DNA of 62,708 nt, filler included, from Dugesia japonica (lineage: Eukaryota): NCBI GenBank assembly GCA_001938525.1. It is 5 parts of 5 records of this genome, joined end to end, with 100 filler letters (N's around TTAATTAATTAA, not from the genome) between each part and the next. Parts side by side here need not be neighbours in the genome. Positions count along the whole stretch, not along the records: positions 45,398 to 62,708 come from MQRL01631589.1; 4 more parts are not named here. One strand, 5' to 3'. The translations under genes were made by a program, and so were the position numbers. The notes under the pieces were generated by a model. That model searched no databases, was not told where the DNA came from, and saw only the letters and a program-made list of their open reading frames with translations. This document shows positions 3,464-58,011 of the stretch, piece by piece (positions within the stretch are counted from its first letter, which is position 1; every line of letters starts with the position of its first letter).

Positions 3464-3503
3464 CTACGCAGTTGCGTAGATGCGCAGCTTAAAAGGAACA
3501 TTG
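3464..3503 (-). mobile_element. Single terminal inverted repeat of a non-autonomous hAT-like DNA transposon
   Basis: Reverse complement reads CAATGTTCCTTTTAAGCTGCGCATCTACGCAACTGCGTAG, a GC-rich hAT-like end with an internal CTACGCA/TGCGTAG hairpin. The partner end was not found. Confidence 0.45.
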
Positions 3504-5534: not shown

Positions 5535-5535
<1 letters not shown>

Positions 5536-5576
<41 letters not shown>

Positions 5577-5626
5577 NNNNNNNNNNNNNNNNNNNNNNNN
5601 NNNNNNNNNNNNNNNNNNNNNNNNNN

Positions 5627-5694
<68 letters not shown>
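5536..5694. repeat. (ATT)n microsatellite spanning a gap
   Basis: Directly visible. Confidence 0.95.
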
Positions 5695-7099
5695 CAAGGC
5701 TAAAACCTAACAAGTCATATAAGTCTAGGCGTGTATACATGTATGAATTGGATTGAGTAATGCAAGTATAACATGATTGGTTGAATATTTATAAAAAATA
5801 GCTTTAATTTTAATACTTATATCATTAAAATCGAAGCCATCCTATTGAGTTTCCATAATATTAAGTTAGAAAATAATGAGATGGAGAAAGAACAGTGGCC
5901 ACCATATGATGAAGATACAGAAAAGGAATGGCTAAGAGAAAAAACTGATACAAGCAGAAGATAATAATAAAAATGTTGGACCGATTTATTTAATAAATTA
6001 GCATTAATTTTAATAATATACTCGTTTTATATAAATTTTAATGTGTCTACTCAAATGTATGCACTAATATCATACGTATACATACAAATATAATCAAATC
6101 TTTAATACAATTAATCATCATACATTTAATTTATTTAATAATTATACTATCCAAGTTCATTAAACACTATAAAACTAAATACAATCATTAAACCAATTAT
6201 TGAAAATTATAAGTAAAATATGCTTTGACCATTAGGATTTTATTCATAAAAGAATAGAAATGAAAGAAATATTTCTAAAAATTACTAAACGTTTTTGTTT
6301 TTAATTTTTAGATGAAAGAAAGAATGGAGAAAGCAGAGGTGCAATCAGAGAAACAGACTAGTTGTAGACAAAGGTGCACGCAGAAACGCAGGCAGATAGT
6401 GACGATGAAGAATAAATGACTATATTATTTTAAAAGTGATGCAAAATTATACTGAATTTCCGTGATGTATTAGAAATGTATGAAGAATTTATGTGATGTA
6501 TTTAAAATTAATACAGAATTTCCGAGAAGTGTTGGGAAATTTATCCAAAATTTCCAAGAAGTGTGTTAAAATTATTCAAAATTTCACATAAATCATAAAT
6601 TGTTATAAAGAAATATTAATAAGATATTTCATACTCTATTTACTTATATTTAAGGATTTCCATTGTAATCATAGATTTGTCTTCTGTTAGATTAATAAAA
6701 GTTGTTACACATATTTGTTTGATGGGTACAAGTCATCAATTCTTGACAATAGAGTAATTAAAACTTGAATGTTATTTAGTCATATTTCAGAATTATGTCT
6801 ACTATAATTTCAATTAAAATTAGTAATTAACTGTATTCGAATATTAAATATGTCTCGTATAAATTAATTGTTTGCAATAAATGTAATCTTTCCAAATTTC
6901 CAAAATTTGTTATTCGTATATACAAGTCAAATCATTTAGCAATTGTTTAATATTATAAAAGAAAATGTGTCAAGAATCGTATAACTTCGTGAAACAAGCC
7001 GATACATCCATTAATCAAATACAGTCAATAAATCTAGTACATTCAATGAACCCGATATATTCATTAAACCTACAAAATTAATTCATTTACGTATATGAC

Positions 7100-9490
7100 C
7101 AGTGACGTAACTAGATGTTTTCGGACCATAAGCAAATTCTAACTACGGGGCCCCTACTAACATTTTTCTTATCTCAACTGTTTATAAAAAGGAAAATTCT
7201 TTTACTAACTTAAGAGTAGAAAATGAAATAGATATATTAAATGAAACATATATATTTATATATTTAAGGATTTTACAATACATTTAAATAAAAGTATTAA
7301 ACGTTTAAAAGAAAACAGATTATAAAGAAAAAACAAAACATATTTGAATAGTATAAATTATATAGTATAAATATAAACAACGGTATAAAAAGTTATTTAA
7401 AAGATTTTTCGTCTGGATGTTGCAGCCGAAAATTTATCAATTAGAGTCTTCGTGTTTAATTAACTTGCTTCTTCATTCTCAATAGCAACAATGCTAAATA
7501 TTTCAGACGAAATTGTCCAATTAAATTTCTTTAAAAATATATTATAATTTTTAATTTGCTGAATGTACTTTTTACTGTAGCAGCAGTCACTGGCAAAGTA
7601 AAAAATATAATAAACCTCGTACATATATACTTCAGATAAATTATTTTCCAAGCAACTTAATATTTCAATTATAATATTTGCAAAGTCCCTTATTGACATA
7701 GATTCATTTAAATCACTTTTCAACAATGTAGTTATGTTTATAAATTGTATAGCAAAGATATCTGATAGTAATTGTGGGATATTTTGTATTGTAACTTGTC
7801 ACATTTAGAATTTATTTTTTTATGACAATTTAAACAATTCTTTGGGTTCTAAAAAACCAAAATAGTTCACAGCATTATCCATACCTTAAAATATTCTTTT
7901 TATTTGATTTATGACAATATCAATATCAAAATTATAAACGTGAATTTAAAAATATTTTTTCTTCTTTCCAATCTATGGTCTGTGGCTAGCTTATCATAAT
8001 GATTTGTTACTTTTGGTTGTCTTTTTCCTCAAAATTAGGTATTATTCCCCAGGATTTCGGTACCTCTATTGCTTCATTTTTAATTCCATTATAAATAGAT
8101 CTAATTTTAGTTATATTGTTGTATAGACGATTTAAAATGCTTTTGGCTTCATTTAAATCTATATTGTTTTTTGTAAAACTTTTGAAGCAAAATTTATCTC
8201 TGTTAATATTTTTTGCATGAACACAGTTATAAAAATAAATTGAAAATTTTCAATTTTTTTTTATTATTTTGAGCATCATTTCTATTTATTTTGTGTTAAT
8301 ATAATTTCAGTTAAAGACCTAATGATATCGGTATATCGTACTTTGATGGCTACTAATGATAGCAATCGTCCCAACCATCAGGTTGGATTAAGTTTCTTTA
8401 GGGTTACTTGTGATTCTCCCGTAAATTTGGAAACTAGGTCCCATCTTTTTACGCCAATGCTAAAAAATGTATAAATTTCTTGAATCGTTGTAAAAAAATT
8501 TGGAATTTCTTTACATTCTTCTACTGCATCTTTAGCGACGAGATTTCATTGTAACTGGCACAATAAATTTATTCAGCTTTTGGCTGAATTTTTAAAAACT
8601 TTTGTTGCAATCTATTGTGTACTACTTTCATTACATTAGCATTATCATACCCTTGACCAACACAATTTTCAATTCCTAAATAAATTTTTTTATTAAAGAA
8701 ATAATATGATCTTTCATTCCTTCTGCAGGATGATGTTCCATTCAAAAAACTCCAAAGAAGTCGCGATCTATGATTTTTTGTAATTTGTACATATCTGATA
8801 ACAGTGCTTAATTGGTCAACTTTTGTAATATCTTGAGTAGAATCAAGTAAAATTAAGTGCATGGGCTTAATTTAATATTAGTAATTAATTTTTCCAACCA
8901 ATTTTCTTCAATACATTAAATTATTTCATTTTGGATTGTGGGACTTAGATATTTAATCGAACCAGTAGGCATTTCTAATACGTTTTTGTTTATCAACTAA
9001 TTTTACTTGAATTACGAGCAAAGTATCATTCAAATCCAAATATTACTTTTTGAATCATTTATAAAAAGCTTTACATTGTTTCTCGATTCAAAATTGATTT
9101 CATTATAAACACATCTTCAAATACACCATATTCAATAATTGCTTGAGGCAGTGGTGGATCAAAAAGATATGGCCCAGTTTTTCCGAAAAAATCATTAATC
9201 AAATATGGTTCTATGTCCTTTAATTAGTTTATTTATGCTAGTTGTGCTTTACTCTTTATGTCTATTAGAAGTCCTTTGTTTTAGGGGTTCATTTTGCTTT
9301 GTGGGTTGATTTTATTTAATATTTCTTATGTCCATCGGTATCTTACTTGTTATACTATTTGGCAACATTTTTGCTACTTTCGGTATAATCTATGCTACTC
9401 CAGAAGGTAAAAATGACATACATTACTTAGTTCAATCAATGAACTTGATAATACATTCTGAGCTATCGTTATAACGTCTAAAAAAAGGAA
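7100..9490 (-). mobile_element. Decayed hAT transposon (ZMYM1/Tip100-like transposase)
   Basis: Motifs LDSTQDITKVDQLSTVIRYV, GQGYDNANVM and C-terminal dimerization-region remnants (...IVAIENE). Terminus CAGTGACGTAACTAG...GGGGCCCC at 7100. Many stops. Confidence 0.88.
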
Positions 9491-9510
9491 GAGCAAATTT
9501 ATCAAGACTT

Positions 9511-9610
9511 NNNNNNNNNNNNNNNNNNNNNNNNNNNNNNNNNNNNNNNNNNNNTTAATTAATTAANNNNNNNNNNNNNNNNNNNNNNNNNNNNNNNNNN
9601 NNNNNNNNNN
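9511..9610. other. Artificial assembly linker N-TTAATTAATTAA-N (also at 24134, 34558 and 45342)
   Basis: An identical six-frame-stop 12-mer is centred in N runs four times. Confidence 0.95.
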
Positions 9611-10436
9611 ATTTATTGTAATTAACAATTACAATTGGCTTATCTATAACTTGGATATTTCCTCCACGTACTCTTCTATTTATTGGTTGAGTGCCTGAAA
9701 CTTCCCAGCTGCCAAATATAGTGAATTTTAGCAAATTTTCTGATCTACAGGCAAATGTATTGTTTTGAGAAAACTTAGGTTTTTTATTGAATAAGGTATA
9801 AACCTTCTATTATTTTGTATAGTCCACCCATGGCCCATAATTGTCTCTCGTTGGTAAAGGTACTGTTCTTCTTTTTTTATTGACTACGATATCACTATCA
9901 GTGCTAATATCCATTTCCTCTTCTTCTTCAAAACTTTCTCTGTCTCTATTACCACAGGAATTTATTTATTCATGGTCATACGAGTCCAAATAAAATTCGT
10001 CAATTCACTACTTTCCAATTCATTTATAATTTCTTTTTGTAAATGTCGTTTGAGCATTTTCTATATTGTAAAAAATTTCAAATTAAAACACAGATATAAA
10101 TTAGACATACACTGGAGTATTTGCCGCGTGGCGTTCTCTACAAAAGTAATAAAATATTGAAAATTTGTAAATGAAATATATATATATATATATATATATT
10201 ATTAATTATTTATTAAATTGATTATTTATTTTTAAATACTCGTATTACGATAATAAATATGATTAAATAATATAAAAAATTTTATTTAAGCATATCATAT
10301 TTCTTGAAAACCTTATTTTAATTAATTGTAAATAAATTTAATTAAATGGATATTATGTAATATTATCTGGTTATAATTTGACCCCAAATAATGTAAAATG
10401 TCGCCTATATGGTGACATACGAGTTCAAAGGGTTAA
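9611..10436 (-). mobile_element. piggyBac-like 5' end with decayed acidic transposase N-terminus
   Basis: Minus strand begins TTAA|CCCTTTGAACTCGTATGTCACCATATAGGCGAC (TTAA at 10433-10436 followed by CCC), then an acidic remnant FEEEEEMDISTDSDIV. Confidence 0.65.
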
Positions 10437-21532: not shown

Positions 21533-24089
21533 ATGATTAAATTATTACTTAAGAAAATGAGTACTCAAATAATAAAATGTGATAATTGTAATAAAACATT
21601 TAAAAATCTAGCAGGAAAAATGGGGCATATAAAATCTAGAACATGTTACAGAGATAATGCGGCATTTCAATGTGAAAAATGTAATAAAATATTTAAAAGT
21701 GAAAATGGTCTACAAAAACATTTAAATTCTACAAAATAGGGTAATACAAATATTGTTCCATTGAAATGTGAAATTTGTAATAAAACATTTACAAGACAAA
21801 ATCACGCAAAAAGACATTACAATTCTGATAAACATAAAAAAATGTTACTTAATCAACTCCCAGGTAATGAAGCAATTAATAATAAAGTAGAAATTAGAGA
21901 TTTATTAAGAATGTATAAAGATTATCAAATTACTTATTTTAAAGATAGCAAAGTAGAGATGAAATATAATGTTGAAGAATTATATCCCATTCCAATTAGA
22001 AATATTAATGTATTTAAATTTGAAGTAAAAGAAATAATAAGAAAGTATTTTAGTTATGCTAAAAAGGTAGTTTTAAGAATGGAAGTAAAATGTAGATATA
22101 TAAAACAATTAAATAATGAATGTGTTGAAAGAGATTTAACTTCTTTCTCTAAAAATAAAAAATTTGCAATTGAAAGTGAAATATCCAATTCTGTTATTAA
22201 AACATTGTTTGAATTAGAAAGATATATTGAAGATAAAGATAAAGAAGGAAGTGGATGGTCAATGTCACAAATTATAGAGTATAAATTAGATCTTTCTAAA
22301 TATCAATCATTAGCCGGTGCTACATATTATAAATCACCATTTTCAAAACAAGGTGTAATAAATATAGAAAATAAAGATAATAAATGTTTCTTATATTCAA
22401 TCTTAGCACNNNNNNNNNNNNNNNNNNNNNNNNNNNNNNNNNNNNNNNNNNNNNNNNNNNNNNNNNNNNNNNNNNTGAATTTCCAATGAACATTGATGAT
22501 ATAAATAAATTTGAAAAATTAAACAATTATGAAATAAATGTATTTGGTGTAGATGTTAATAAAAAACTTGAACCACTTTACATTTCACATCATACAATAA
22601 AACCAGATACAACAGAAAATAAATGTAACTTATTAGTATATAATGATCACTATATTTTATGTAGAAATCTAGGTGTATTTTTACACCTAATAGAAACAGA
22701 AATTATCCATGTATCAGATGTATGAATTGTTATTCATCTGAAGAAGTTTTAAATAAACATCAAGATGCATGCATTAGACATAAACCTAATAACATTGTTT
22801 TTCCATATGAAGATTATTATTCATTTAATAAATTTTATCAAATAAACAAAATACCTTTTATTCTAATTGGTGATTTCGAAGCTTATACAAATTCAAATAA
22901 AAAACAAAAAGCTTTATCATTAGGTGTTTTTTTAAAATCAGAATATCAAGATTTATTAGAAAGCAAATATTATGAATTCTCAGGTGAAAACATTTATGAT
23001 GAATTCTTTAAGTTTTTAGATGACACTAATAATAAATTACAAGATATAAAAGATAATAAATGAATAATGGAATGTACAACTGAAGTTCCAGAATTGTCCG
23101 AAGGCACAAAATGTAGATATTGTAAAAAATTATTAAGAACTTCAGTTAAAGATCATAACCATTTTACAGGGGAATTTAGAGGGTGGTCATGTAACAATTG
23201 TAATGTAAATGATCTATCAATTAAAAATTTATTTATACTATTTTACTTTCATAACGCATCAGGTTATGATAATCATTTATTTTTTAAGGAATTATTATTA
23301 AAGTTTCCAAGTAGAATAAAAAAGATAATACCTCACTCATCTGACAATTACATTTCATTTGAATTTAGAAATATTAGATTTCTTGATTCAGCTAGATTGT
23401 TACCTTTTACATATGTAGAAGTAATGGGAAAATTATTAACACAATCTAATAATTATCCAATTTTAACATCATTTAATTTAAGACCGAAGAAAGCTATATT
23501 TCCTTATGAATATGTAAAAGGTGAAAGTATAGCAGAAGTAGAAGAATTATTAAAATCTAACAGAATACCAACAAAAGATGATTTCTTTAACACATTAAAT
23601 CAAAAAGAAATATCTGATGAAGAATATGCGGCATTTTTAATTGACTTTGAACAATTTGATAGTATGTGGTGTTACATGTTACACTATATGAAGTTAGANN
23701 NNNNNNNNNNNNNNNNNNNNNNNNNNNNNNNNNNNNNNNNNNNNNNNNNNNNNNNNNNNNNNNNNNNNNNNNNNNNNNNNNNNNNNNNNNNNNNNNNNNN
23801 NNNNNNNNNNNNNNNNNNNNNNNNNNNNNNNNNNNNNNNNNNNNNNNNNNNNNNNNNNNNNNNNNNNNNNNNNNNNNNNNNNNNNNNNNNNNNNNGTGGT
23901 TATTCTGGTGTTTGTGGTGAAAGACAAGTATTTTCACATAATAAAAATAAAGAACCATATACTACACAAATGAATAAATCTCAATATGAAGATTTAATAA
24001 AAATGATGAACACATATGAATTTATTCCAGATGAATATCTTGAAAATTTATTAGAAGATACATTTATAAAATATTTAGATGAAAATAGT
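21533..24089 (+). pseudogene. Polinton/Maverick-type protein-primed PolB with N-terminal C2H2 fingers and endonuclease-VII-like insertion; truncated by contig end
   Basis: Three C2H2 fingers, EGSGWS, INIENKDNKCFLYSILA, DFEA (ExoI), DHNHFTGEFRGWSCNNCN, FHNASGYDNH (ExoII), FLDS, FPYEY, GYSG and YLDENS (Pol motif A). In-frame stops at 21737 and 23061 and a frameshift near 22680. Confidence 0.93.
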
Positions 24090-24189
24090 NNNNNNNNNNN
24101 NNNNNNNNNNNNNNNNNNNNNNNNNNNNNNNNNTTAATTAATTAANNNNNNNNNNNNNNNNNNNNNNNNNNNNNNNNNNNNNNNNNNNN

Positions 24190-41655: not shown

Positions 41656-43708
41656 ATTATAGACCAGTAGAGAAGAAGGTGCTAACCGAGGATTTAGTTG
41701 ATTTAGACGCGTTATTGTACATGAATATATAAATAAATAGTCCTCAATGTTAATGTGATTTTTGGAGGGTTTGATAACGGTTATGTATGACCAGTATAAT
41801 TCGTTTGGTTGGTATTGTTTAAAGAAATACTGAGCATAGGATAGAGATTGCTGTTGGGGTTCATAGATCTAGTGAGTAAGACGCAATACCACAAAGTTGC
41901 GCTGAACCCGTGAAAAGAGAGGGGCATGATACCATAAATGCTTGTGGTTTTTAGGTGTGCCCCTAGACATGACAGTGAAATATTAAATATGGAAGTGAGA
42001 AAAAAGAGTTTAGAAAAAAAATTAAAAGATTAAAATCCTAAAGATCCAACATATATAAAAGGTATTTCTAAGTTTTGACATTAGATAAATTTAAAAATGT
42101 TCTGCAAATACTGATATTTGATGTTTTCCGTTTTGAATATGAACTTTTAAATTTGTTCAAAATATCCAAATTTATATGTAAAGTTTTTGTTTTAATAAAT
42201 CTTGTAATCAATTCGAGTTATGATATTGATGATCCGATGAGTTTTCCAAACTCATCTAACAACAACAATATTTAACGATTGCGACTGAATGTGTTTAATG
42301 TCATATTGTATATATTTCATTTAAATTGGATTCTAAAATTTCGTGATTTAATATAATCGAATACTTTCTACATTTATCAACAATTCTTTTTTTATCAATA
42401 ACTACTTTCATCAATATGGAATTTCATTTCGCTGATAAATTTTTGAAATACTTTTCCTTTATAATTAATATTGATATTCATTATTAGTACCTTTTCAAAT
42501 ATTTTTACTTGATTTGTTGAGATTAATTCGAGTACACTGAATAAAAAAGTTACTAAATAATCAATTAATTTACAATGNACAGATTAAGAAATGATGTTGT
42601 ATATCAATTTNTCGGTACTATTTGTAAAGAAAACCTCTGATTATATTCAAATTATTGAAATCAAATTTCAACAAAATATAATAGTATAGAGGGGCAGATG
42701 AAGAGCATGGATTGATTCAATATAAAAATTGTTTATATTGTTTATATTTTATATATTAATATATAAATTGTTTAGCAATATAAAAATGGCAATTATAATT
42801 AAATCTGATGATAATTTCCGAAGCAAGATATTGAAACCGGATAATATAATTATTTTTGAAGATCTTTACCAGGAAGAAAACAAAAAAAAGAACTTTGATT
42901 TTCTTTACTTAGCAGAGAAAAAGATTCGAAAATTTATTTTCATAGTTTCAATAAATTCATTCAATGCTTTACTATGGTCTATTAAATTATAATTTTTTTT
43001 AAATTAAGTCTGAAAAATTGTTTTAATTTAGTTTTGATTAAAACCTTTCATAAATGTTTTTTTTTTAAAAATTTAAAAAAAATTTAATGCATTAAAGTAT
43101 TAAAATATTTAGATACGTATTTTATTAATATTAAAATTTTTCTCTTATTTTTTTACTAATTTTTTAGTTATTTTAATTATTAAGAATCTTTGATAAAATG
43201 TTTATTTATTTTTATTAATTATTTATTTTTTAAATTATTTCTTTAATTATTTATTTTTAATTTTTTACCTTTAATTATTAGGATTATTTAAAATATTTGA
43301 AATGTTAATTATTGAAAAAACGTTTTTTTAAATATTTGAAGATAAACATTTTTTAATTATTGTAATTATTGAGAGAAGTTTTAATTATTGAAATATTTTT
43401 TTTAAATTATTGTAATTAGTGAAAATTTTTCAGAAAATTTTTAATTATTGTAATTGTTAAAAATCTCGTTAATCAAAGGTTTCTTCTCTTTAATTAATAT
43501 TTGTTCAATTTTTTTTCTGTGAAGTGTAGAAATGCAGCCTGTTCCTAATGTTTGCCAGGTAATATGATGATTTTCTGGTAAAACATTATGTTTGTTTTAA
43601 AAGTGTTTAAAGACCTCAATTTCTTTCAGTTATGGAAATTTTAAATAAGTTGTTTGAATAATATGAATTAACGTTATAATTTATATTTAATAAAGTTTCT
43701 AATCTTAG

Positions 43709-45297
43709 TTGTTATTAAAATATGATAGAGGACAAGGATATTACCACGCCAAAACTGTAAATGCGGTAGCAAGGCAACAGCATCAACGGAAAGTAATTTT
43801 AGATGCGCTACTAAAACAAGCGCAAGAATTAATAAATTTTAATGTCAGAAAATATGACGGAAAAGATTCAGAAGAATCTTCAAAATGGTTTAAGGATATC
43901 GAAGAGTGGACTATCGTTAGCGATTTTAATTTGATGGATTTGCTACTGTCAGACGAAGCAAGAATTCTTTGGAAAGCTTTCAAAAAGATTGAGATCACAA
44001 CGGAGGAAGCCAAGAGATGGTTTACGGACACATTTATGATAATAAAAATCGTTTTCANNNNNNNNNNNNNNNNNNNCAATGGTAAAACAAGAGACCGAAG
44101 AAAGATTCACAACATTCAAAATCAGAGTACGAAATCTGATAGATAATTTCATGAATTCAGGACTAAGTAAAGATGAAATAATTAAGGACGTATTTTCAAA
44201 GAAGGTTAAAAAATACAAAGTTTTGAGAAACATTGACAACACATCCTGATATTAAGATCATGGAAATGAGATCCGTAGCAAAGATTTACGAATCGCCGAA
44301 AAGTAATGATACAAAAAAGTTATGCAAATGTAGTAAAACCGTACATAAAATAGAATTGAAGAGGATAGACATAAAGTACGTGTAAATAATTTGCCAGTAA
44401 AAAGAGTATATGAGAGGAACACACAACAAGTGATGATAGAAGATAGAACACAGGCGATGAGGCCAAAACCAACAGTATTAATGAAATATTTGGCAAGATG
44501 TTATTTTAATAGACAGAGAAAATAAACAGAGAACCTTGTGAAGAAAAACTCCAAGACGGACAATGTTAATGCGGAGAACATGTTCCGCAATATATTGCAA
44601 TATCAGGTTGCAACAAACCGTTAATTTCGACATAAGCATGCAAGAACAGTTTAAATGCATTAAAAGACAAGCTATGTAGTGCTCCAGTATTAGAATATTC
44701 CAGAGAAGATCGGATATTTATTTTAGACACTGCTACTAGTTTTGATGCTATCGGTGCAGTCCTTAGTCAATCCAAAGAAAAAAATGAAGTGGTATAAACG
44801 TATGAATTTATACATTTGACAGCTCATGAAAAAGCATACTGTGTGACAAGAGCTATTAGCTATACACGAATTTGTACAATAATTCAAACAATATTTGTAT
44901 GGAAAGAGATTTCTAGTAAGAACGGACCACAAAGCATTGNTGTTTTTGAACAACACAAAGAAACCAAATAGTCCCCAACTCCAGACGTGGATGGCGAATT
45001 TGGGAGAGTATGATTTTGAACTGAAGTATAGAAAAGGTGAACAACACAACAAAGCGGATGAGTTGTCAAGGCTAAAGGAGAGTTTATGTAAACAATGTAG
45101 CATGAAACACATAGACGCAAAAGGAGAAAAGTAAGTGTGAAACATATCAATGGAATTCAATGAGACAGAAGATTCAAAAATACAATGTTGTATATCAATG
45201 TTGTAAAAAGTAAGTTTAGAGACTAAAAAGAGTGATCAAGGAAGTTACTGGAATAAACTGCCCTTGAACACTCAAGAAGTAAGACAAAGTATCCTGT
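43709..45297 (+). pseudogene. Ty3/Gypsy gag plus RNase H remnant, internally deleted
   Basis: Gag-like KYDGKDSEESSKWFKDIEEW; LCSAPVLEY...FILDTATSFDAIGAVLSQ; YGKRFLVRTDHKAL...YRKGEQHNKADELSR. Confidence 0.9.
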
Positions 45298-45397
45298 NNN
45301 NNNNNNNNNNNNNNNNNNNNNNNNNNNNNNNNNNNNNNNNNTTAATTAATTAANNNNNNNNNNNNNNNNNNNNNNNNNNNNNNNNNNNNNNNNNNNN

Positions 45398-46090
45398 ACA
45401 GTGAACAGCTATTACCCTGGAGTAGTAATACTACCATCAGACAGAAAATTGGAATAATCAAGTGTAAAAGATTATAAGAGCTGAAAGACTATTTATAAAT
45501 GAAGAAATAAGATTGACTTCACTCAGGTTGATTAAAAAATAAAATTTCTATATAATGGTTACCCAATCGTATCTAAATATTTATCCTCAAATACAAAATT
45601 TAATAAAATCAAACAAAAGACAAACACAATAATTAAAAGACCTTTTATTAATGAGAAATGTAGCCAAATCATGGAAAATATAATTTAAAAATCAAAACTC
45701 AAACACAATCCGAGAATTATATTTAAAACTCAAGCACTTTTGGGTATCCAATTACAGAAACCAAGACAGAACTTTCGTGGTTCCACATGCATTTGTGATG
45801 GTAGAAATATATGCAATTAAAAAAATATCACTTAAAAAATAACATAAACCTTATGTAAGGATACATATATAGGAGAAACATGCAGAGCCATCCGTACAAG
45901 AATTAAAGAACATCTCAAACAGAAAGAAAGTGAAGTCTTCAAATTCTTTCAACAGAAACATAATATTTTACCAGAAAAATATCATATTACATGGAAAACA
46001 TTAGGAACAGGCTACATTTCTACACTTCACAGAAAGAAACATGAACAAATATTAATTAAAGGGTATAAACCTAAGATTAATATGATTTTC
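45398..46090 (+). mobile_element. Penelope-like element C-terminus with GIY-YIG endonuclease
   Basis: LPWSSNTTIRQKIGII, NGYP, CICDGRNIC, CKDTYIGETCRAIRTRIKEHLK...E..LIK..KPKIN. Confidence 0.92.
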
Positions 46091-49000
46091 AATAATTACA
46101 ATAATTACAAATTAAAAAAAAATTAGTATCAGTATAATTTTTTAAAAATTTTTTTAGTAAAATACGAAATATTGATAAAATTTTTTTTATATAAGACTTG
46201 AGAGAAGCTTTTGAATGTTTATTAAAAGTCAATGGAAAAATAATTTTATTTTACTATGTTAATATTTTAATGTTTTGGTATTTTGATATTTTAATATATT
46301 TATTTTTTAAACATTTGAGAGATTTTCAATTCAATTTGGCTAAAAAAGATTTTTCGAGATTTAATTTAAAATAAGAAAATTTATAATTTAAATAGACCAA
46401 TAAAATTTTAATAAAATATAAAGAATTTTGTAACAAAGATCTATTATCGTTTTCAATCTATCAAAAAGTCATCATTCCTAAAGAAGACAAGTGTCGAAAA
46501 TTTGAATTTCTATAAAAGTACATTTCACTTTGATCGAAGCTTTTTCTTTATTTTAATGAAATCTCAAATGCGATCAATGGTTAAGTCCAACAATTATTCT
46601 NGCAATAATTGTAATTATAAAATCCTTTCACTTTAGTTTATTCTCAGGAGAGTTTCTCCTTCCAAGTTCATTCCTAACTTATTTCAGCGAGTAACACAGA
46701 TAATCTTGGTGTTTTGATATTGTTGTTTTAGAAATAAAAAAGTGAATCTTTTCTCGACAGTCTCTTTCAACTTTTTCAACGAAATAATTTAAATTAATTT
46801 CTGTAATTTTTGAAATCTTTTGTCTCCTCGTTTGTCTAACGTTTCTCCCAATGATAACCAACGATATGAGGTTGATTGTGGAACATTAAGCGTATGTGTA
46901 AGTTCTCTCTAGTCTCAATTCATGCTTGACACAGCTCGTATCTGCTTTTATTTAGATTCTTTTTCTTTATTTTTATGGTCTTTCAATTATATTATTAAAT
47001 TTACAATAAATTTAAATTAACTTTAAACGATTTATTGAAAACACAAGGCTTTTTTTCTTATTTTATTATTTATTTTAAAATTTAATGTTCTCATATAGAA
47101 GTTTACTATTCTCATTTTGAAAATAAAATGGCATAGATCCAGGTCTAGAAAGTTTTATCTGAAAAGATGCTTTCAAATTGACATTATTCAGAAGTAAATG
47201 TTTAAAAGGATTTTGAGTTATTGTAGATGATTTTTATCTGTTTATTGAATTTTCAATAATAAATTCCTGTCAAATAAAATTCAACACATTTATTTAAAAA
47301 AAACTTATTAAAGAAATTTACTTTAATAAAAAAATACACTTTAGATTATATTAACTTTACATTAAATATAAATTCTTACATATTGAATTTACACGAAATT
47401 CATTTTTAAAACTATGTAAAATTCTAAAAGCTAAATTTCAACAAACTTTACAACGCAATTTAATTTTTCCATTCAATTCTTTTTAGATAACTTACTAAGA
47501 TAGGTTTCCTGTGGACAACCACTCTAGAAATTGTAACTTTATTTTTTACTTACCTAAAAATATTTTTAAAATGTTATTACTTAAGGAAGCCAGTGTAGAA
47601 TTTAAAAATTGGAAATTAAAATTTTTGATGTCAAGTGTACGGCTTTGTGTGAATTCCAATATTAATATGATAATCAGTTTGTAGACTAAATAAAACTGTC
47701 ATTATTTAAAATTATAGCACAGAGATCTTTACTAATTGATGGAGTTTGCAGTAATTTTGTGTTCTAATTTAAATTAAAAAACAGAACCCAATAATATTGT
47801 ATGTACTCAAGTTTGTTCCACTTAGATTTTTACAAATTTCTAATAAATAGATTTAAATTGAGAATAAATCCATTACGTTTTTAAGTAATTTCCAAAATTT
47901 TTTTGAAATTATTCACTTATTAGTTTTTACATAATTCCGTGACGGATGCGATTTACAGTTTGCTGCATAAATTAAAATTTGTTACTTTATAATACAGTTG
48001 TATGAATATTTCTCTGAATACTATTATATAGTTTTAGTGGTGCAAGTTTGATAAAATACATTATAATAAACAGATAATTCATCTAAAAGTTTGAAATTTT
48101 GTATAATTTATTTTTAATCGTTATAAATTATTGGAAATTTTAATTAAAAAATATTTTATAGTGACTATTTAATAATTAAAGTCGACACAAATGTCATATT
48201 GATTATATATTTTATAAACCATTTTTTATAAATAATTACAATTTTGTCACATTTGTCGTTGACATGTTTTCAAAGTGACCATCCTGAAAAATGTTTATAG
48301 TTTATTTATAATAAGTGTCGCCTTTTCATATAACATAATAAATTCACTGAATACTCTGTGTAATTTATCAACTTTCATTTAAAGTGATTAATAATTTATA
48401 ACATAAGTGATGTAATTTTTAAATTCCCTTTAATAAAATTTATTGAAGTGAATAGTAGTTAAAAATTTTGATTGTAATTGTAAACAGTAATATCATCTAA
48501 TTAATTATTTTCGGAACATTTTTGTAATACTTATGTATTAAAAATAGAAGAATAAAAATTGAAGATAACACTTAAATTCAGTTCATTACACAGTTTGTAC
48601 CCACATTTCAAATTTTTGTAAATCAACTTGAAATTATAAATTTTACAAACCTAGAAATGATTTCAAACTATATAAAAAGAAGGATAATTGATTCATTTAA
48701 ATGGCCATTCAAAAAAAGAAATAGGTTAATAGGTTAAAATCCTTGTTGGATTTTACCTTTGTATATTTTACCTTTCGATTTTATAGCAAATTCAATATTG
48801 AATACGTAACATAAATAGATGAATGGAATGAAAGGCTTATTACTATTGATTATAAAGAAAGGAGATTGGGTTTTAATAAGGATGATGTTGAAATATCTTG
48901 AAAAACAAACTTACAAATCAAATTAATGTATCATGATTATGATTTGATATTTGGCAATCTAGAAGATTCAGAAAGATTTGGATTCGATAATTTAAATAAT

Positions 49001-49348: not shown

Positions 49349-49662
49349 TCAACAACTCCCAATTGTATAGAAACTGGCATCAGTGCCTAATATGAATTCT
49401 TTGTTTATGTTGGGAAAACACAATATTGGCCCAGTCATTAGAACTTTCTTTAGATACTCAAAAGTATAGTTTATTTCATTTGTCCATTCTAACGTCTTGT
49501 TGATTGGTCCGGTATACAACTGTTCTAAGATTGTTGATTTTTTTGCGTAGTTTTCTATAAACTTCCTGTAGTAATTACAAATTCCTAAGAAACTTCGCGA
49601 CATCTTTACACAGTTAGATTTTCCAAATGTCCTAATTACTTCTATTTTAGACGGATTACTTC
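49349..49662 (-). pseudogene. Ty3/Gypsy RT thumb/connection, downstream half of a split pol
   Basis: SNPSKIEVI...RSFLGICNYYRKFIENYAK...LCFPNINKEFILGTDASFYTIG. Confidence 0.92.
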
Positions 49663-50278
49663 TGTTGGGGCGAAACACCCAGAGGAATGAAAATCAAGGG
49701 GTCAGGAATAACCCAATATCAAAATAGAAATTACGAGAAGGAACATGGTAAGAAAAGCAAGTATGTAAAATCCAGACAATAATAGTGAGCGAAAATGGAA
49801 AACTCGGAAGATCAAATTAAATGTGATTAATTATAATAATCGCAAAATTANNAAAATTATTAAAGAAAATAAGTAACAAAAGAAGAAATAAATACAAAAA
49901 AATAACAATTAATTTAAACGAAAAATTAATTAAAATTGAGACAAAATCAGTTTTATGCAAATAACTCTGGTTAGAAAAGTCGGAAGAAATCCGGGTGAGA
50001 AAATATGAAAAGAAAACAACAAGAAGTATGGAACTTGTAAGGAAGAAAAATCTTACCACCATCCAGAGGATTACTGCAGGGTTTCCTAGATCGAACCAAT
50101 CAGATATCTAAAAATAAAAATAAAACAAAGACACAATTATCATGTGCCAGTCTAAAAATAACTACCGATCAGAACTCCAGAATTCTTGGAAGATTGGCAC
50201 CAGATCCAATAGAATTCAAATAATTCAAATTAAAAATAACCAGCCAACAGGAATACAGTCGGGATGCAACTAAAGGCA

Positions 50279-50286
50279 TATATAAG
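50279..50286 (+). promoter_or_regulatory. Candidate TATA box of the LTR-like insertion
   Basis: TATATAAG with a TCA initiator-like motif about 30 bp downstream, a donor-like TTG|GTAAAT near 50421 and AATAAA at 50569. Confidence 0.45.
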
Positions 50287-51782
50287 CCGCTACAAACTTA
50301 GGTGAAAATCATCATCAAATCAAACTTTTAATAACAACTGAGCTTAGAAGCTATATTCTCGATTTAAAAAATTATTTAGCGAATATTACTGGTACGAACG
50401 TCTCAAATTATTATAAAGTTGGTAAATAAGATTCCTTGTAGAATTACAGGAAGCCGACGAGAAAATTACAATCAGGAAGAGAGAATTATTCACCAATCCG
50501 ATACTCTCAAAATTATCCGAGAATTTGCCAGTCGTTGAAAAAACCGTTGCAGAAATCTTTCAGTTAATAATAAAAAGTAAAGTATTATTTGGATTGTGTA
50601 AAAGTGGTATATTTGATAAACTATACATATTATTTATTCTAATAAAAATTAGTTTATGTTACATAATCGTAAACTGTGATTTTCTTAGTTAGAAATATTG
50701 AATGATAAATAAATTGTAAATCACCTTGCATTTGGTAAGAAATTAAATTAAAAAATTCCTTGAAACCATTAATCATTGCTTTAGAATAAAATAAATAATA
50801 GGATATGCGCAAATATAGTAAATCAACAAAATCTTGTATATTTCGGGATTAATCAGAAAACAAGAACCGGATTATAGAATTTAGATAAGTTTTAATTTCC
50901 TTCAATAATTTTATGACCAAGGTCTAGTTGCATAATCAGATAACCAATAAGGAAAGCAAGTTCCAATTATTTATTAAGAAAATCAATAAATTATAACTCC
51001 CTCCAATTGACTCGAACTATAAATAATCATAGAGAACTCAGTGGTAAAATAATTCCCAAAATATCAGTAACGCTCGCTGTTCAGCTTAACTCAACTTGAT
51101 CATTATTGGCAGCCAATCTTTCGTGACCACACTCTCAGGGAGTGAGAAATTCCAAACTGTTTATGCACAATGCAAAATAACCAAACTGCTTTATCTAAAT
51201 TACGAAAATCCGATAGCACTACTAGGTTTGACGAATTCAGAGTCATACTATTAGCAGGTGTGTATATAATATGTCGATTTACTCATAGTAGTTATTTGAT
51301 GCCGTCTACTTAAATCGGATTCCCTGCTATTACACACCTACACGAGACTAAATTAGTAAACACACCTTCCAACACCAATAAAATCAGTATAATTAAACCA
51401 CATCACTAGGCAACTGCAGCGAACATAAATTCAAACTTAGTAGAAAAAGGAAATTTTTTGTTATTGTACTTTTACTAGCATCATTCTATTATTATTGATA
51501 TTGTGGTAGTTATGGTAACCAGTATTACGGGGATTCAAATCATTAGTAATGATAAAAACATTTGAGCGGAATGGGTATCAACCTATTGAAGCAATCAAGA
51601 ATTTAGGATAAAATTTGACTAGTTATTATTCAGGATCGGGATTGTTGATACTACCCGAACTAACACCAACGATATGGTCATGTTTTCGAACGTCATGATG
51701 TGTGTCTTTAACCCTGATTAAAATGATTTTGCACTACTACATATAATGGTGGTGATACTAATTATTATTTTTTTTTACTAAG

Positions 51783-51913
51783 CTGTTACGACCCTAATTC
51801 ATAACCTCCCTCTGCTGATTATCTTTTTCATGTTACAATCCTTAGCGACAATAACGGTTCGGGACAATGATTTGATCAGGCAAAGTAAAGCAAGTGGTAC
51901 AGACTGCAGTTAA
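51783..51913 (+). CDS. Short phase-1 orphan exon with a hydrophobic stretch
   Basis: T-tract-ACTAAG acceptor, then VTTLIHNLPLLIIFFMLQSLATITVR...DCS*. Confidence 0.3.
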
Positions 51914-51932
51914 TAGTTCTTTCTTTTAGCTC

Positions 51933-52115
51933 ATGCCAACAGAATTGTATGGGGTCCTGCGATGGATAAGGAAGCGACGTCAAGTTAGCAGGTCGAAACA
52001 ATTAATAGCTCACTTGCTGACCAAAGGAGAGATCGAGCACCCCGATGAAACTGACCTTCAATGTTTTGCGGAGATGTTTTCGTTGGAAGTAGGGGTCGAC
52101 TTAGATGAAGAATGA
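51933..52115 (+). CDS. Orphan 60-aa ORF (basic N-terminus, acidic C-terminus)
   Basis: TTCTTTCTTTTAG|CTC-ATG; GC-richer island; ends DLDEE*. Confidence 0.45.
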   Translation: MPTELYGVLRWIRKRRQVSRSKQLIAHLLTKGEIEHPDETDLQCFAEMFSLEVGVDLDEE

Positions 52116-52252
52116 TATTTTATTGACCACCCGATGATCAAACATTATCTATGAAAAACTTGGTGTTTTATTTTAATTAATTAGATGAACGATCTTCTTT
52201 TGATGTTTTAATGCTGTGTTTGAATTTTCTTATTTTCTTTTGTTTCTTAGAA

Positions 52253-52603
52253 ATGGAGTCAATATGGGAGAGGACAGTAGACAGGCGTACCCGCCGAATC
52301 ATTTTCCGGCGATACCACAATCCATACAATCTCGATACGGGGATTTTAGTAAACCGATCCAATCTACCTCCCATAGAAGCGGCTGTTGCTCGTATTCAAA
52401 ACTTTGGGGAGCGTCTGAACTTCCGCCAGTGGAATGGGCCTGAGCGTAACCACGCCACTCCATTCCGTTACCAACCTCCAGCTCCCCCACCCATAGTTCA
52501 GGCTTTCCTTACCAATATGCTCTGGGGAGTTAGGGAGCCTTCCGGGGTAGTGGATGCTGAAAATACGGCTCCTGTGAGTGACAATGATAACAACTACCCA
52601 TAA
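52253..52603 (+). CDS. Orphan 116-aa Arg/Pro-rich ORF
   Basis: TTTTCTTTTGTTTCTTAG|AA-ATG. GC content rises sharply at the acceptor and falls after the stop. Confidence 0.55.
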   Translation: MESIWERTVDRRTRRIIFRRYHNPYNLDTGILVNRSNLPPIEAAVARIQNFGERLNFRQWNGPERNHATPFRYQPPAPPPIVQAFLTNMLWGVREPSGVVDAENTAPVSDNDNNYP

Positions 52604-52750
52604 ATTCTGTCTTTTACTTGAAAATATAAATAGGTGTTTTTTTTATTATGATTTGTATTATAGTTGCTTGCGTGGTTAAGATAAATTGGTGTCCTATAGT
52701 GAATATATTATTGAGTTTTGTAATCTTCATAATTAATACAATTATTTCAG

Positions 52751-53055
52751 TGCACTCCTCTCTGAATAAATCACAGGCCCCGCATAAAAAGTTACGAGAG
52801 TCTAGCGAAGACCTTGATCTTACATGGGACCTGTACAGATTAGCCAAACGTCGTTGGGAAGCCGATGTCGCTAACGCAGAGGCGAAGGTTAAGCGTTACA
52901 AAAAGAAATGTTTATCTTTCAAAACAGAATCCGAGGCCTCTCACCAACTAGAGAGAGCATGGAAAAACCAATTAGAATCCCTAGCCGATATTATCCGGTC
53001 CTGCAATGACCGAGAAAATAAACTGGTCAACGACATACTAAAGCTAAAAAAATGA
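52751..53055 (+). CDS. Orphan coiled-coil terminal exon (no in-frame ATG after the acceptor)
   Basis: ATTATTTCAG|TG in phase 1, about 100 codons. A likely frameshifted tail ends at 53108; AATAAA at 53128. Confidence 0.55.
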
Positions 53056-53224
53056 TGCCTTTAGCCACTCTCATGGTGGATAAAGGTGTGCAGATCCCTC
53101 GTCCCTAGTTGTTGTCTTAACATGCTTAATAAAAATTTTATTTATCTTTGTTTATTCAATTAGTCCGAAATTAATTACATTACCTTCCATAAATTACGAA
53201 TAGCCATCCATTAATTTTTTTTAG

Positions 53225-53607
53225 TGCCACAGGTAACATTTCCCAATAATTTACGTTGTTGTCATCGGATAATGAAACGCCTCTTGATAGAAAGACATCT
53301 AAAAAAGAAGGCTGGCCGGACCATCCTCAAGCATTTGGCCCAGAGAGATAAGTTAATAAAGCGATTAGACCTAGTCGTAAAGAAGCAGAGCGACTTGGCG
53401 AATCAAACTAAGGCTTTAGAAGCAGAGACGAAACAACTTTTACAACGAAAAATTGAATTCCTTAAACAATACATCGCCGATCTCTCCCGCCAAATAGGCA
53501 ATCCAGCTTGGATTCAGTGGGATGAAAACGACGATATCGCTGCTTTTAACCTTTCGGTGACCGACCCGGCCCAGTGGTTGGATTCAGGGGCGCTGGATTT
53601 ACTATAA
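53225..53607 (+). CDS. Orphan coiled-coil terminal exon/ORF (about 127 aa)
   Basis: TTTTTTTAG|TG in phase 1; heptad-like LANQTKALEAETKQLLQRKIEFLKQYIADL; AATAAA at 53623. Confidence 0.55.
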
Positions 53608-53860
53608 ACAATTTTATATTTGAATAAAACGTATATATTTAATATCGTATTTTCTTTCTTTTACTGATAATATTAGGGAAAAGAATGAACCCGAATACAA
53701 AGGTTTATGGGTGTGTACCTCCCATTAAGAGAGAGGTCAATCGCCATGAACTGAATACCTACCCTAGGGCGGTAGGTTAAATTCTTTAACGGGTTCCCCT
53801 GAGGGCTGTTGTTCCCCAGTCACAATTTTCTTACCATCCAACTCAGGTGGAACCCCAACA

Positions 53861-54110
53861 CTTCTAACACCATCCCAGCTAATAATGTGTCCAAGAAATT
53901 TGATTTCTCTTTGAAGAAACTGACACTTGTCCGTAATTAAACCAGACTTCATTATTTCCGCCAATACATTGTCAATTACTTCATAGTGTTGATCATTATT
54001 GTTCATAAATATCAGAATATCATCAAGATGTACAATGGCTTCATTAATTCTGCCTACCACTTTTGTTTTCATCTCCTGAAATGTTCTTAGTTCAGCTGCG
54101 ATACCAAGCC
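53861..54110 (-). pseudogene. Ty3/Gypsy RT core, upstream half of the split pol
   Basis: VHLDDILIF...KCQFLQREIKFLGHIISWDGVR. Confidence 0.92.
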
Positions 54111-54309
54111 ACGTGGATCACGCATCATGTTTTTGGTGACGTCTTGAAATAAGTCTTGATCAATGTTGACATTTAGTTTTTTTGATGAGATGACTTAATC
54201 AATTTGATATGATTTGAATCTCTCTATCAACCATATCCAAATGTGTGAACGTGTCAATTATCAATCAATCCGAATTATTTGAATAGTTTACCGAATTATT
54301 CAAATTTTA

Positions 54310-54780
54310 AAATTTTTGGATGATTTGCTCAGGAAATTCTTCGAGAAGGTTGATTTTTGTGTGATTTTAGGCAATTATTTCTTCGGGGTTGATCAGTTTG
54401 GGCAAACTTGGTCGGTTTTAGGTAATTTTTGAACGATTTGGTTAGGAATTTCCTCGGGGAGGTCGAATAAGGTTAATTTTTGATTGGTTCAGGGGAATTT
54501 GGTTGATTATTTCCTCGGGTTTGAGCAGTTTGGGCAAATTAGGCTGGTTTTAAGTAATTTTTGGGTGATTTGGTCCAATATTTCCTCGGGAATTGATGAT
54601 TTTTAGGTGATTTAAATAAAATTGGTTGAAAATTTCCTAAGATTTGGTTAATTTTTTGGGTGATTTGGTTGAAAGTTTCCTCGGGATTGGTAATATTTGG
54701 GTGATTTGGTTAATTATTTCCTCCAGATTGGTCATTTTGGGTGATTTGGTCAAATATTTCCTCAGGAATGGTTTACATGG
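54310..54780. repeat. Degenerate minisatellite (about 35-40 bp units)
   Basis: Repeated TTGGGTGATTTGGT...ATTTCCTCGGG. Confidence 0.85.
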
Positions 54781-56556: not shown

Positions 56557-58011
56557 ATGGTTGATTCGAAATATGAAACATTTGAAGATGAAAGTGATGC
56601 TAACAGTTATTCGGATTATTTTAAGTGCGAAAATAAATTGAACAAAATCCATCCAAAATATACTATTTCAATTTGCTGTGCAACTTGGGGATTTTTAACT
56701 GGTGTTGAAAGAGCCATTATTTTACCGACTCTCTGGTTATACTTTGTCACTAGGTTTGGTAGTCAAGCAGCAGCATCATATTATGGTGCAACTTTAGCTG
56801 CATTTAATTTATCAGTATTCATATTTGCTCCTTTATATGGATTTTTGGCGTATAAAGGTTTCAGAACAAAAGCTTTATTGGTGGTCAGCAATCAGCTAGA
56901 AGTTGTTGGAAACATAATTTACTTTGTTGCTTCAGAACCTTGGTTGGTTATGTTGGGAAGGTTTATTGCTGGAATAGGGTCTGGAAGTGAAGTTCCTTTA
57001 TACGCTGATGTAGTTCGTGTAACAAATCCTGAAGAACGAACTCCTTATATTGTAATTCTGTTACTCGCCAGACAAGTTGGATTAATAATTGGACCAGCAG
57101 CAACTTTGATTTTGCATCCAATAAAATTTCAAATTGGTTCAGTTTCCTTAAACATTTATAATAGCCCAGGATTCCTCATGGCAATATTATGGTGTGTTCA
57201 AACAGTTCATGTGCTTATTAGCTATCCCGACGTTGATAAATCAGGAGCATTATTGAAAAGTGGATCACAAGGAAAGAAAATAAATGAAATGATAATACAT
57301 AAAATATATGAAAAAAATATTGAACCAGATATGTCTAGTCGAAGGAATTCTGAGTTATGTCAAGAATCGAATAAACCAAAACCAACATTTTTTGACAAAT
57401 CAAAAAAAGCTATTAATAAATTTTCGAACTATGCTTATTATAATACATTGTCGCTTTTAGCAATTGTATTCAGTTCATATTTTTCTTTAATAAGTTTAGA
57501 AGCTGTATTACCTCCTGTGACCGTTAGATATTTTCAGTGGAATGAAGTCCACAACAGCTATGTGTATTTAGCAGCAGGGATTTTGGTAATTATTATTTAC
57601 GGAATTTTACAATCAGTATCTCGTCATATTAAAGATAGAACAGTACTTTTAATTGGGTTAATATGTTTAATCATTTCATATGCCTCGATTTCCTTCACTC
57701 TTGGTTTCATTAATTCCGAAGAAAAGATGCTTTACATTGTATTATTATCTTGCGAAATCTTTCTTCATATATTTGGTTTATCGTTGGTTATTGCTTGTGG
57801 TGAATCATTATTTACTAAATCTCTTCCACCAGAAGAAATGGATTTGGCACAAACTGTATTAAGAAGCACTATAAATTTTTCTCTTTTAATTGGACCGTTT
57901 ATCGCTGGATCACTTCAGATTTATCCGTACTTGGTTTTTATTATTTTATTTTTATTAATGTCATTTTCTTTACAATTTTTGGTTTTGAGATATAATTTAT
58001 TTAACATTTAA
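56557..58011 (+). CDS. Major facilitator superfamily transporter, MFSD8/CLN7-like; single coding exon, 484 aa from the first ATG
   Basis: Intact ORF with about 12 hydrophobic segments in two bundles around a hydrophilic loop. Motifs IILPTLWLY, GRFIAGIG, GLIIGPA and IYNSPGFLMAILW resemble the MFSD8 family. AATAAA overlaps the stop. Orthology is not established, so no symbol is given. Confidence 0.92.
   Translation: MVDSKYETFEDESDANSYSDYFKCENKLNKIHPKYTISICCATWGFLTGVERAIILPTLWLYFVTRFGSQAAASYYGATLAAFNLSVFIFAPLYGFLAYKGFRTKALLVVSNQLEVVGNIIYFVASEPWLVMLGRFIAGIGSGSEVPLYADVVRVTNPEERTPYIVILLLARQVGLIIGPAATLILHPIKFQIGSVSLNIYNSPGFLMAILWCVQTVHVLISYPDVDKSGALLKSGSQGKKINEMIIHKIYEKNIEPDMSSRRNSELCQESNKPKPTFFDKSKKAINKFSNYAYYNTLSLLAIVFSSYFSLISLEAVLPPVTVRYFQWNEVHNSYVYLAAGILVIIIYGILQSVSRHIKDRTVLLIGLICLIISYASISFTLGFINSEEKMLYIVLLSCEIFLHIFGLSLVIACGESLFTKSLPPEEMDLAQTVLRSTINFSLLIGPFIAGSLQIYPYLVFIILFLLMSFSLQFLVLRYNLFNI

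Follow-up and report, generated by a model that had tools for sequence, protein, structure and literature searches.

Several open reading frames with candidate splice acceptors inside a solo long terminal repeat of the planarian Dugesia japonica: a probable accessory-gene cassette

Long terminal repeats (LTRs) are usually viewed as control elements that encode no protein, and a solo LTR counts as an inert leftover or a stray promoter. Complex retroviruses carry accessory genes in or near the LTR, e.g. sag of mouse mammary tumor virus (MMTV), nef of human immunodeficiency virus (HIV), tas/bet of foamy viruses (driven by an internal promoter), and the antisense HBZ of human T-cell leukemia virus type 1 (HTLV-1). 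The adenovirus major late unit, in turn, joins one leader to many alternative 3′ exons with their own polyadenylation (polyA) sites. Here we describe a 4.2-kb solo LTR in a 62,708-nt stretch of Dugesia japonica DNA (hereafter, the window; assembly GCA_001938525.1), located in the part from record MQRL01631589.1, which probably bears a real accessory-gene cassette: of the open reading frames (ORFs) in its five candidate coding islands, ORFs 3–5 likely belong to it, ORF2 possibly does, and ORF1 is doubtful. Like the retroviral genes, these are short orphan ORFs in an LTR, presumably reached via splicing or a second promoter; the splicing is predicted in our case. Whereas complex retroviruses have one or two such ORFs and infect vertebrates, the cassette comprises three to five tandem, acceptor-led and stop-ended ORFs, which fill about half of the LTR of an invertebrate, putatively Ty3/gypsy-type element, and sequence, family and fold searches revealed no homology to known viral accessory proteins. 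The adenovirus unit, with its DNA genome, non-coding leader, and an ATG in each exon, is an analogy only.

Other described systems share single traits with this locus, as far as the cited excerpts of the respective papers go. The giant planarian Burro elements are likewise gypsy-like flatworm elements with accessory functions acting on the host cell, but their extras (BIR, BCL2-like, MATH, ankyrin) are internal polyprotein domains or one upstream ORF (PMC6431247), whereas the cassette lies inside the LTR; none of these four Pfam families matched its ORFs. Bdelloid rotifer LTR retrotransposons provide an invertebrate example of spliced, sometimes coiled-coil extra ORFs (ORF3s), yet there a single ORF sits in the internal region, and the LTRs measure 159–551 bp (PMC5408684). 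In plants, Ogre/Tat and Retrosat2 elements combine 3–6 kb LTRs with orphan extra ORFs, which number one or two and do not form an exon array in the LTR (PMC3485330, PMC6431247). Flatworm spliced-leader (SL) operons resemble the cassette in their same-strand genes 100–300 nt apart and their donor-less acceptors (PMC12582326, PMC8629364), but consist of host genes, and the SL AUG is in phase 0, in contrast to the mostly phase-1 acceptors here. Finally, solo-LTR promoters of cestode ta-TRIM elements launch cis-spliced transcripts, in which downstream host exons rather than genes within the LTR are spliced (PMC4558846). The first-pass annotation of this DNA knew of no such layout in an invertebrate LTR; the open literature likewise gave no description of an exon array there, though subscription papers, Repbase, or the primary planarian genome paper and its supplement may hold one.

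The solo LTR and its insertion site comprise the following features.

49663..53860: solo LTR, 4,198 bp, ends TG..CA, 8-bp terminal inverted repeat TGTTGGGG...CCCCAACA
49659..49662, plus strand: target-site duplication, left copy, CTTC
53861..53864, plus strand: target-site duplication, right copy, CTTC
49349..49662, minus strand: pol remnant of the host element, reverse transcriptase-RNase H part (Pfam RT_RNaseH_2, E=3.9e-8)
53861..54117, minus strand: pol remnant of the host element, reverse transcriptase part (Pfam RVT_1, E=2.2e-8)

A minus-strand Ty3/gypsy pol remnant is interrupted by the LTR, with RVT_1 on the right side and RT_RNaseH_2 on the left, and an empty site exists, as other copies of the host element have both flanks fused without the LTR. 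Taken together, the TG..CA ends, the CTTC duplication, the split pol and the empty site therefore identify 49663–53860 as a solo LTR inserted in another retrotransposon, in agreement with the location that the first-pass annotation had given for the islands. Judging from termini, 4-bp duplication and context, the parent element would be of the Ty3/gypsy type. Two loci sharing 18-nt terminus matches with the LTR (L002, L003) had nothing else significant in common with it and were rejected as relatives, and a search of Rfam returned no match.

To learn about other copies, four of 24 listed sequencing runs were compared with 49500–54000 at 88% likeness. Two contig runs, X1 and X6, were taken as DNA-like because their depth profiles correlate (Spearman 0.86 over 27 bins) and X1 covers the spacers. 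X6 contigs cover 30 of 30 bins and are mostly 90–99% alike, revealing a dispersed, multi-copy LTR family. Summed X6 contig depth, which is not a copy number, is ~2,000–10,000 over the first 600 bp of the LTR, 50–340 over 50255–52368, uneven and higher (135–44,000) over ORFs 3–5, and at least 15,000 at the right LTR end; this suggests that the LTR ends and parts of ORF4 and ORF5 are common to related families more than the LTR middle is. The peak of 44,000 (vs. about 100–1,400 elsewhere in the cassette) falls on 52973–53123, the 3′ end of ORF4, suggesting that a very abundant family has a stretch related to it. One X6 contig links the left end of the LTR (49820) to the right end (53719), which suggests a short LTR derivative without the cassette.

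The cassette itself consists of five islands and two sets of candidate signals.

51783..51913, plus strand: island 1 (ORF1), phase 1, 42 codons with a hydrophobic core; within chance level and may be a mere pyrimidine tract
51930..52115, plus strand: island 2 (ORF2), 61 codons, phase 0, ATG at codon 2; borderline
52251..52603, plus strand: ORF3 (island 3), 116 codons, phase 1, strongest acceptor, ATG two bases past the acceptor; orphan
52751..53055, plus strand: ORF4 (island 4), 100 codons, phase 1, no methionine codon, basic, helical; third-position bias among diverged copies
53225..53607, plus strand: ORF5 (island 5), phase 1, 126 codons; predicted to form a helix of 86 residues and a small C-terminal hairpin
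53128..53133, plus strand: AATAAA downstream of ORF4, with a T-rich stretch behind it; the next acceptor is 92 nt past the AATAAA
53603..53628, plus strand: TATAAA that overlaps the stop of ORF5, with AATAAA at 53623; ~235–255 nt from the LTR end

The first-pass annotation had reported five GC-richer coding islands behind polypyrimidine-AGs, and most of this description holds at the letter level. All five AGs (51782, 51929, 52250, 52750, 53224) are where they had been placed, islands 1, 3, 4 and 5 read in phase 1 and island 2 in phase 0, and AATAAA follows the last two islands at 53128 and 53623. The islands have a GC content of 0.41–0.51, and the spacers (16, 135, 147 and 169 nt) are 68–77% AT. 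With respect to the size of the AT-to-GC step, AGs 52250 and 52750 rank 3rd and 6th of 236 AGs in the LTR, the other three 16th, 41st and 49th. Each island ends in a stop, as described (51913, 52115, 52603, 53055 and 53607); islands 1, 3 and 5 also contain donor-like GTs (51885, 52349, 52574, 53233 and 53377). As for the number of coding islands, ORFs 3–5 beat chance, while ORF1 is at chance level and ORF2 borderline.

Indeed, three plus-strand frames of at least 100 codons were observed in the LTR vs. 0.19 expected, a number reached in none of 500 resamples; when local GC was kept, the expectation rose to 0.31, and two of 500 resamples reached three. The minus strand of the LTR has no frame of this length. 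The probability that any frame stays open across an island is 0.27, 0.09, 0.015, 0.007 and 0.004 for islands 1–5, respectively, values that are flattered because the island boundaries were picked after inspection; islands 1 and 2, at 0.27 and 0.09, are therefore unproven. Codon G content in islands 2–5 is 0.26–0.34 at position 1 vs. 0.14–0.20 at position 2, a bias that island 1 lacks. The hydropathy of island 1 (2.49) makes a signal peptide possible, and is equally explained by the pyrimidine tract. Between the candidate leader described below and island 1, positions 50944–51313 hold three consecutive plus-strand frames of 51–55 codons (GC 0.33–0.42), possibly a decayed further exon; two of the three were searched against Pfam, without a match. 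A GGTGTTTT motif lies past the stops of both island 2 and ORF3 (52162–52169 and 52633–52640; two of four plus-strand occurrences in the window) and is possibly a downstream polyA element.

Diverged copies point to selection on two of the frames. Among the loose ends of contigs listed (18 of 765), all three inside ORFs were used and aligned by hand. At one ORF4 loose end (5 contigs) the frame is kept, with 6 of 10 differences at codon position 3, and at another (8 contigs) it is kept with 8 of 10. Two contigs end loosely at the last codons of ORF5; both of their differences are at position 3 and the stop is the same, while the 3′ flank is unalignable and needs a 3-nt offset. Pooled, 16 of 22 differences fall on codon position 3 (binomial P=1.8e-4); thus, the family keeps the ORF4 and ORF5 frames, which supports that these would be translated and selected as proteins across the family. 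The copy in the window has a different record. Among the single-letter differences listed (40 of 553), all nine in ORF3 and ORF4 are non-synonymous, with position 3 spared throughout (P=0.026 by position). Because these nine are near-fixed in all other copies, we take them as private decay of this copy. It is probably degenerating, and probably silent or close to it in the two RNA runs compared.

No relatives of the proteins were found. ORF3 and ORF5, compared with 5.8 billion proteins (near lengths only), had no match at E≤0.01, ORF4 had none among 1.84 billion representative proteins, and exact look-up of four proteins gave no match. Pfam and PHROGs returned only weak, below-cutoff or coiled-coil-type matches for the cassette ORFs. 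For ORF3, a single-sequence model of low confidence (predicted local distance difference test, pLDDT, 57) showed no viral fold match; the ORF5 model (pLDDT 78), which consists of an 86-residue helix and a small hairpin at the C-terminus, had no match for its one long helix in the PDB. No loci related to ORF4 were found in viral contigs, and a metagenome match (L001) was rejected as a chance hit to a bacterial mfd-like locus. ORF4 contains 23% lysine plus arginine, with a basic cluster near its start, as does an 84-codon frame elsewhere in the window (see below). These traits suggest that the cassette proteins could be nuclear coiled-coil adaptors.

A similar layout was found in a second, unrelated LTR-like remnant of the window.

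40500..41969, plus strand: second LTR-like remnant, ends CCCCTAGACA, left end not found
40694, plus strand: acceptor-led, GC-richer frame of 57 codons behind TTTTATTAG; phase 0, P=0.09
41399, plus strand: acceptor-led, GC-richer frame of 84 codons behind TTTCAG|TG; phase 1, P=0.03, first methionine at codon 58

Its LTR status is less sure because the left end was not found. Past the 84-codon frame there is an AATAAA, followed by a tail of ~230 nt with an A|GTGAGT site, and its TATA/AATAAA pair is at a distance from the right end like that in the 4.2-kb LTR. The two share no DNA likeness and no significant protein likeness, with no ORF pair reaching significance; homology between ORF4 and the 84-codon frame, whose N-termini are alike by eye, was unsupported by BLASTP or shuffles and was rejected. 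In a scan of the whole window for acceptor-led, GC-stepped frames, all plus-strand matches above 60 codons fell in one of these two elements. ORFs 3–5 and the 84-codon frame are all in phase 1 (4 of 4, P=0.037, a set chosen after looking). A short frame at 40570–40630 in the second remnant looks, by eye only, like the beginning of an HMG box and has no Pfam match.

How the frames would be expressed was addressed from candidate signals elsewhere in the LTR.

50279..50286, plus strand: TATA-like box TATATAAG, the sole match of its kind in the LTR; nearly palindromic, minus strand readable too
50311..50576, plus strand: ATG-free stretch of 266 nt downstream of the TATA box, candidate 5′ leader
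50735..50784, plus strand: candidate 50-nt intron, GTAAGA...TTTAG, called from sequence only
50785..50817, plus strand: candidate last leader exon of 33 nt, with ATG at 50805, four codons, and a phase-1 donor at 50818; last base A
53772..53777, plus strand: donor-like GTAGGT in the LTR right tail, after a 29-codon frame with ATG at 53685; phase 0 in this copy

The absence of ATG over 266 nt has a probability of 0.007 under a model from the left half of the LTR, and of 0.065 under a model from the stretch itself. The donor-like sites at 50422 and 50577 are preceded by open, methionine-less phase-1 frames of 45 and 50 codons (P=0.03 and 0.02, respectively, for the named frame). Of the four donors proposed in the first-pass annotation, only the one at 50818 has an upstream in-frame ATG, and it is in phase 1. 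A leader with this donor would share the frame of islands 1, 3, 4 and 5, though not that of island 2. The islands differ in their need for such a start: ORF3 and island 2 have an ATG beside the acceptor, the first methionine of ORF5 is codon 16, and ORF4, because it has none, needs a start from upstream, where an in-frame methionine codon is present only within the T-rich spacer. An inverted match of 32 bp (87.5%, E=1e-4) connects 50326–50357 in the leader region with 43689–43720, before a gag-like remnant, and may be chance in AT-rich DNA.

Our tentatively preferred explanation, to which we assign somewhat less than an even chance, is that a shared cis-leader is spliced to one terminal exon per message. 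The TATA-like box at 50279, the candidate cassette promoter, would yield a pre-mRNA with an ATG-poor leader, whose last exon would end in phase 1 and supply the start with its ATG four codons before donor 50818; at the two AG|TG acceptors, its terminal A would moreover create an ATG. The leader would be joined to one acceptor in each message, with polyadenylation after that exon. Several short proteins would result; probably nuclear or coiled-coil in nature, they would act in the service of the element or modulate its host cell. More speculatively, the cassette might be antisense to the genomic RNA of the element, in which case its introns and polyA signals would survive retrotransposition. 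The first 600 bp of the LTR, strongly T-rich on the minus strand, common to many copies and with an edge at the near-palindromic TATA, would fit the R-U5 (repeat and unique 5′) region of a minus-oriented LTR carrying such an antisense cassette. A wider version of this explanation is conceivable but less likely than not: several flatworm Ty3/gypsy families might have multi-kb LTRs with a self-contained unit of leader plus alternative terminal exons, some starts being made by splicing, each solo LTR being a portable multi-gene cassette exchanged between families with common LTR ends and perhaps kept in antisense against intron loss.

Several observations weigh against splicing from a shared leader. 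By a simple in-house rule, pyrimidine-tract AGs are at background, with 10 on the plus strand of the LTR (equal to the 2.4 per kb of the window) and 19 on its minus strand; of the five named AGs, 51929 and 52750 fail the rule. Agreement in phase among the five is at chance level (P=0.14 for four of five in one phase), and island 2, being in phase 0, would not continue the frame of a phase-1 coding leader. The LTR plus strand has 15 AATAAA, three of them inside ORF4 and ORF5. Taken alone, the splice signals are thus weak evidence. Furthermore, the candidate middle leader exon (50691–50734) contains a short upstream ORF, the ORF4 consensus of 8 contigs (agreement 0.74) carries a stop, the nine listed differences, apparently private to this copy, are all non-synonymous, and the third-position evidence is confined to short stretches of ORF4 and ORF5, with none for islands 1–3. 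On the RNA side, run X8 (13.6 million records) has a mean depth of 0.2–0.9 in parts of 51916–53123, i.e. a handful of reads, compared with 12–22 on the pol flanks, and run X11 has nothing in the cassette. A search across sequencing runs listed no RNA run with the sequence, which speaks neither for nor against splicing. Among the joints listed (15 of 58), none is a GT..AG joint between a candidate donor and acceptor, in runs hardly able to show one. For the candidate 50-nt intron, the alignment of one X6 contig starts at precisely the G of candidate acceptor 50784, leaving the preceding 69 letters unplaced, that of one X1 contig ends at 50724 with 69 letters unplaced after it, and another X6 contig spans the intron unspliced. 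These breaks are compatible with a poorly conserved small intron, as a hint that proves nothing.

The frames could instead be coding pieces, real or once real, that derive from captured or decayed accessory genes and are not alternative terminal exons at all, the AGs being chance occurrences in T-rich spacers and islands 1–2 non-genes. Background acceptor density, weak phase statistics, islands 1–2 within chance, the uniformly non-synonymous listed differences of this copy, the stop in one ORF4 loose-end consensus, the near-absence of RNA reads and the lack of homologues are all in line with this. We nevertheless consider it rather unlikely, as the third-position bias indicates selection on ORF4 and ORF5 while the family diverged, ORF4 lacks its own start codon, the frames start at AT-to-GC steps with TTTAG/TTTCAG-type sites, and the unrelated second remnant is built alike.

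Alternatively, the LTR could be transcribed as an operon, its pre-mRNA cut by SL trans-splicing at the donor-less acceptors, with 3′ ends in the T-rich spacers and the terminal AUG of the SL as the start. The host is a flatworm, and trans-splicing, which the first-pass annotation did not take into account, yields donor-less acceptors in short-spaced rows. According to excerpts of the source, flatworm SLs end in ATG, operon candidates are set by a spacing of ≤300 bp, and partial SL sequences in LTR/LINE (long interspersed nuclear element) loci suggest trans-spliced retrotransposon RNAs (PMC12582326); for Macrostomum, an operon spacing peak near 100 bp is given in a second excerpted source (PMC8629364). 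The spacers here, T-rich and 135–169 nt long (16–169 nt when all are counted), are under that 300-bp limit, both island 2 and the second remnant's 57-codon frame read in phase 0, and the next AGs in ORF4 (52776) and ORF5 (53232) are phase-0 CAGs. The reading frames argue otherwise: an AUG abutting the first AG reads 4, 9, 4 and 3 codons in islands 1, 3, 4 and 5, and 0 codons in the 84-codon frame, so that in four of the five islands the first AG would not bring the SL AUG into frame; for ORF4 and ORF5 this happens only at the next CAG. In addition, donors are present upstream, and a cis donor beats the SL, as an excerpt of PMC4558846 has it. An SL operon is improbable in our estimation.

MMTV sag and HIV nef, both genes of the 3′ LTR, are reached by splicing across gag-pol, and the islands could analogously form a cassette in the U3 (unique 3′) region of a plus-oriented full-length element, transcribed from TATAAA 53603, with a leader from the right tail or the internal region spliced over gag-pol to the 3′ LTR and the solo LTR as a silent leftover. 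The TATAAA/AATAAA pair ~235–255 nt from the right end, which in a plus-oriented LTR could be the main promoter/polyA module, fits this orientation, and a similar pair is present in the second remnant; a diverged copy retains a TATA-like run near the right end; the donor-like site at 53772 follows an ATG-started 29-codon frame and has a counterpart in the A|GTGAGT of the second remnant's tail; and spliced messages are said to express the extra ORFs in LTR elements of rotifers, at least in excerpts of PMC5408684. We hold this arrangement to have a low probability, since the 53772 leader is in phase 0 in this copy and other copies have a one-base indel near there, the signals at 50279–50818 (TATA box, ATG-free stretch, donor cluster) are left unexplained, and sense-strand acceptors and polyA signals in U3 would shorten the genomic RNA.

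The remainder of the window, which is ~75% AT overall (an excerpted source gives >70% A/T for Schmidtea mediterranea, PMC11410931), contains further elements and one host gene. The latter, intronless and at 56557–58011, encodes an MFSD8-like transporter of the major facilitator superfamily (MFS); 18 relatives at E≤1e-30 were found among 7,998 scored candidates, and 11 of 11 named ones belong to Platyhelminthes. Upstream of the host-element pol remnant lies an array of ~41-nt repeats (54315–54776). Inverted repeats of 196 nt (85%) at 43436–46113 surround broken plus-strand remnants that are gag-/pol-like by eye. An integrase-like remnant at 34620–35290, with a purine run behind it and a short repeat at both 35291 and 35403, looks BEL/Pao-like by eye, and ORFs at 21740–24137 match a C2H2 zinc finger and endonuclease VII, as in Polinton-type elements.

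Planarian gypsy elements have been connected with host cells before: the gypsy element Burro1, with its B-IAP, is quoted in an excerpted source as acting on stem-cell survival (PMC13465017), and in another excerpted source such elements are activated tissue by tissue after piwi knockdown (PMC8532177). If LTRs of this kind indeed encode several selected proteins via alternative splicing, an expression strategy like that of complex retroviruses would exist outside vertebrate retroviruses, posing the question of how a retroelement retains introns and polyA sites within its LTR. The small proteins encoded in the LTR would then be testable candidates for the interplay of element and host, and the many flatworm solo LTRs would, if this is true, be gene cassettes that annotation masks as repeats.

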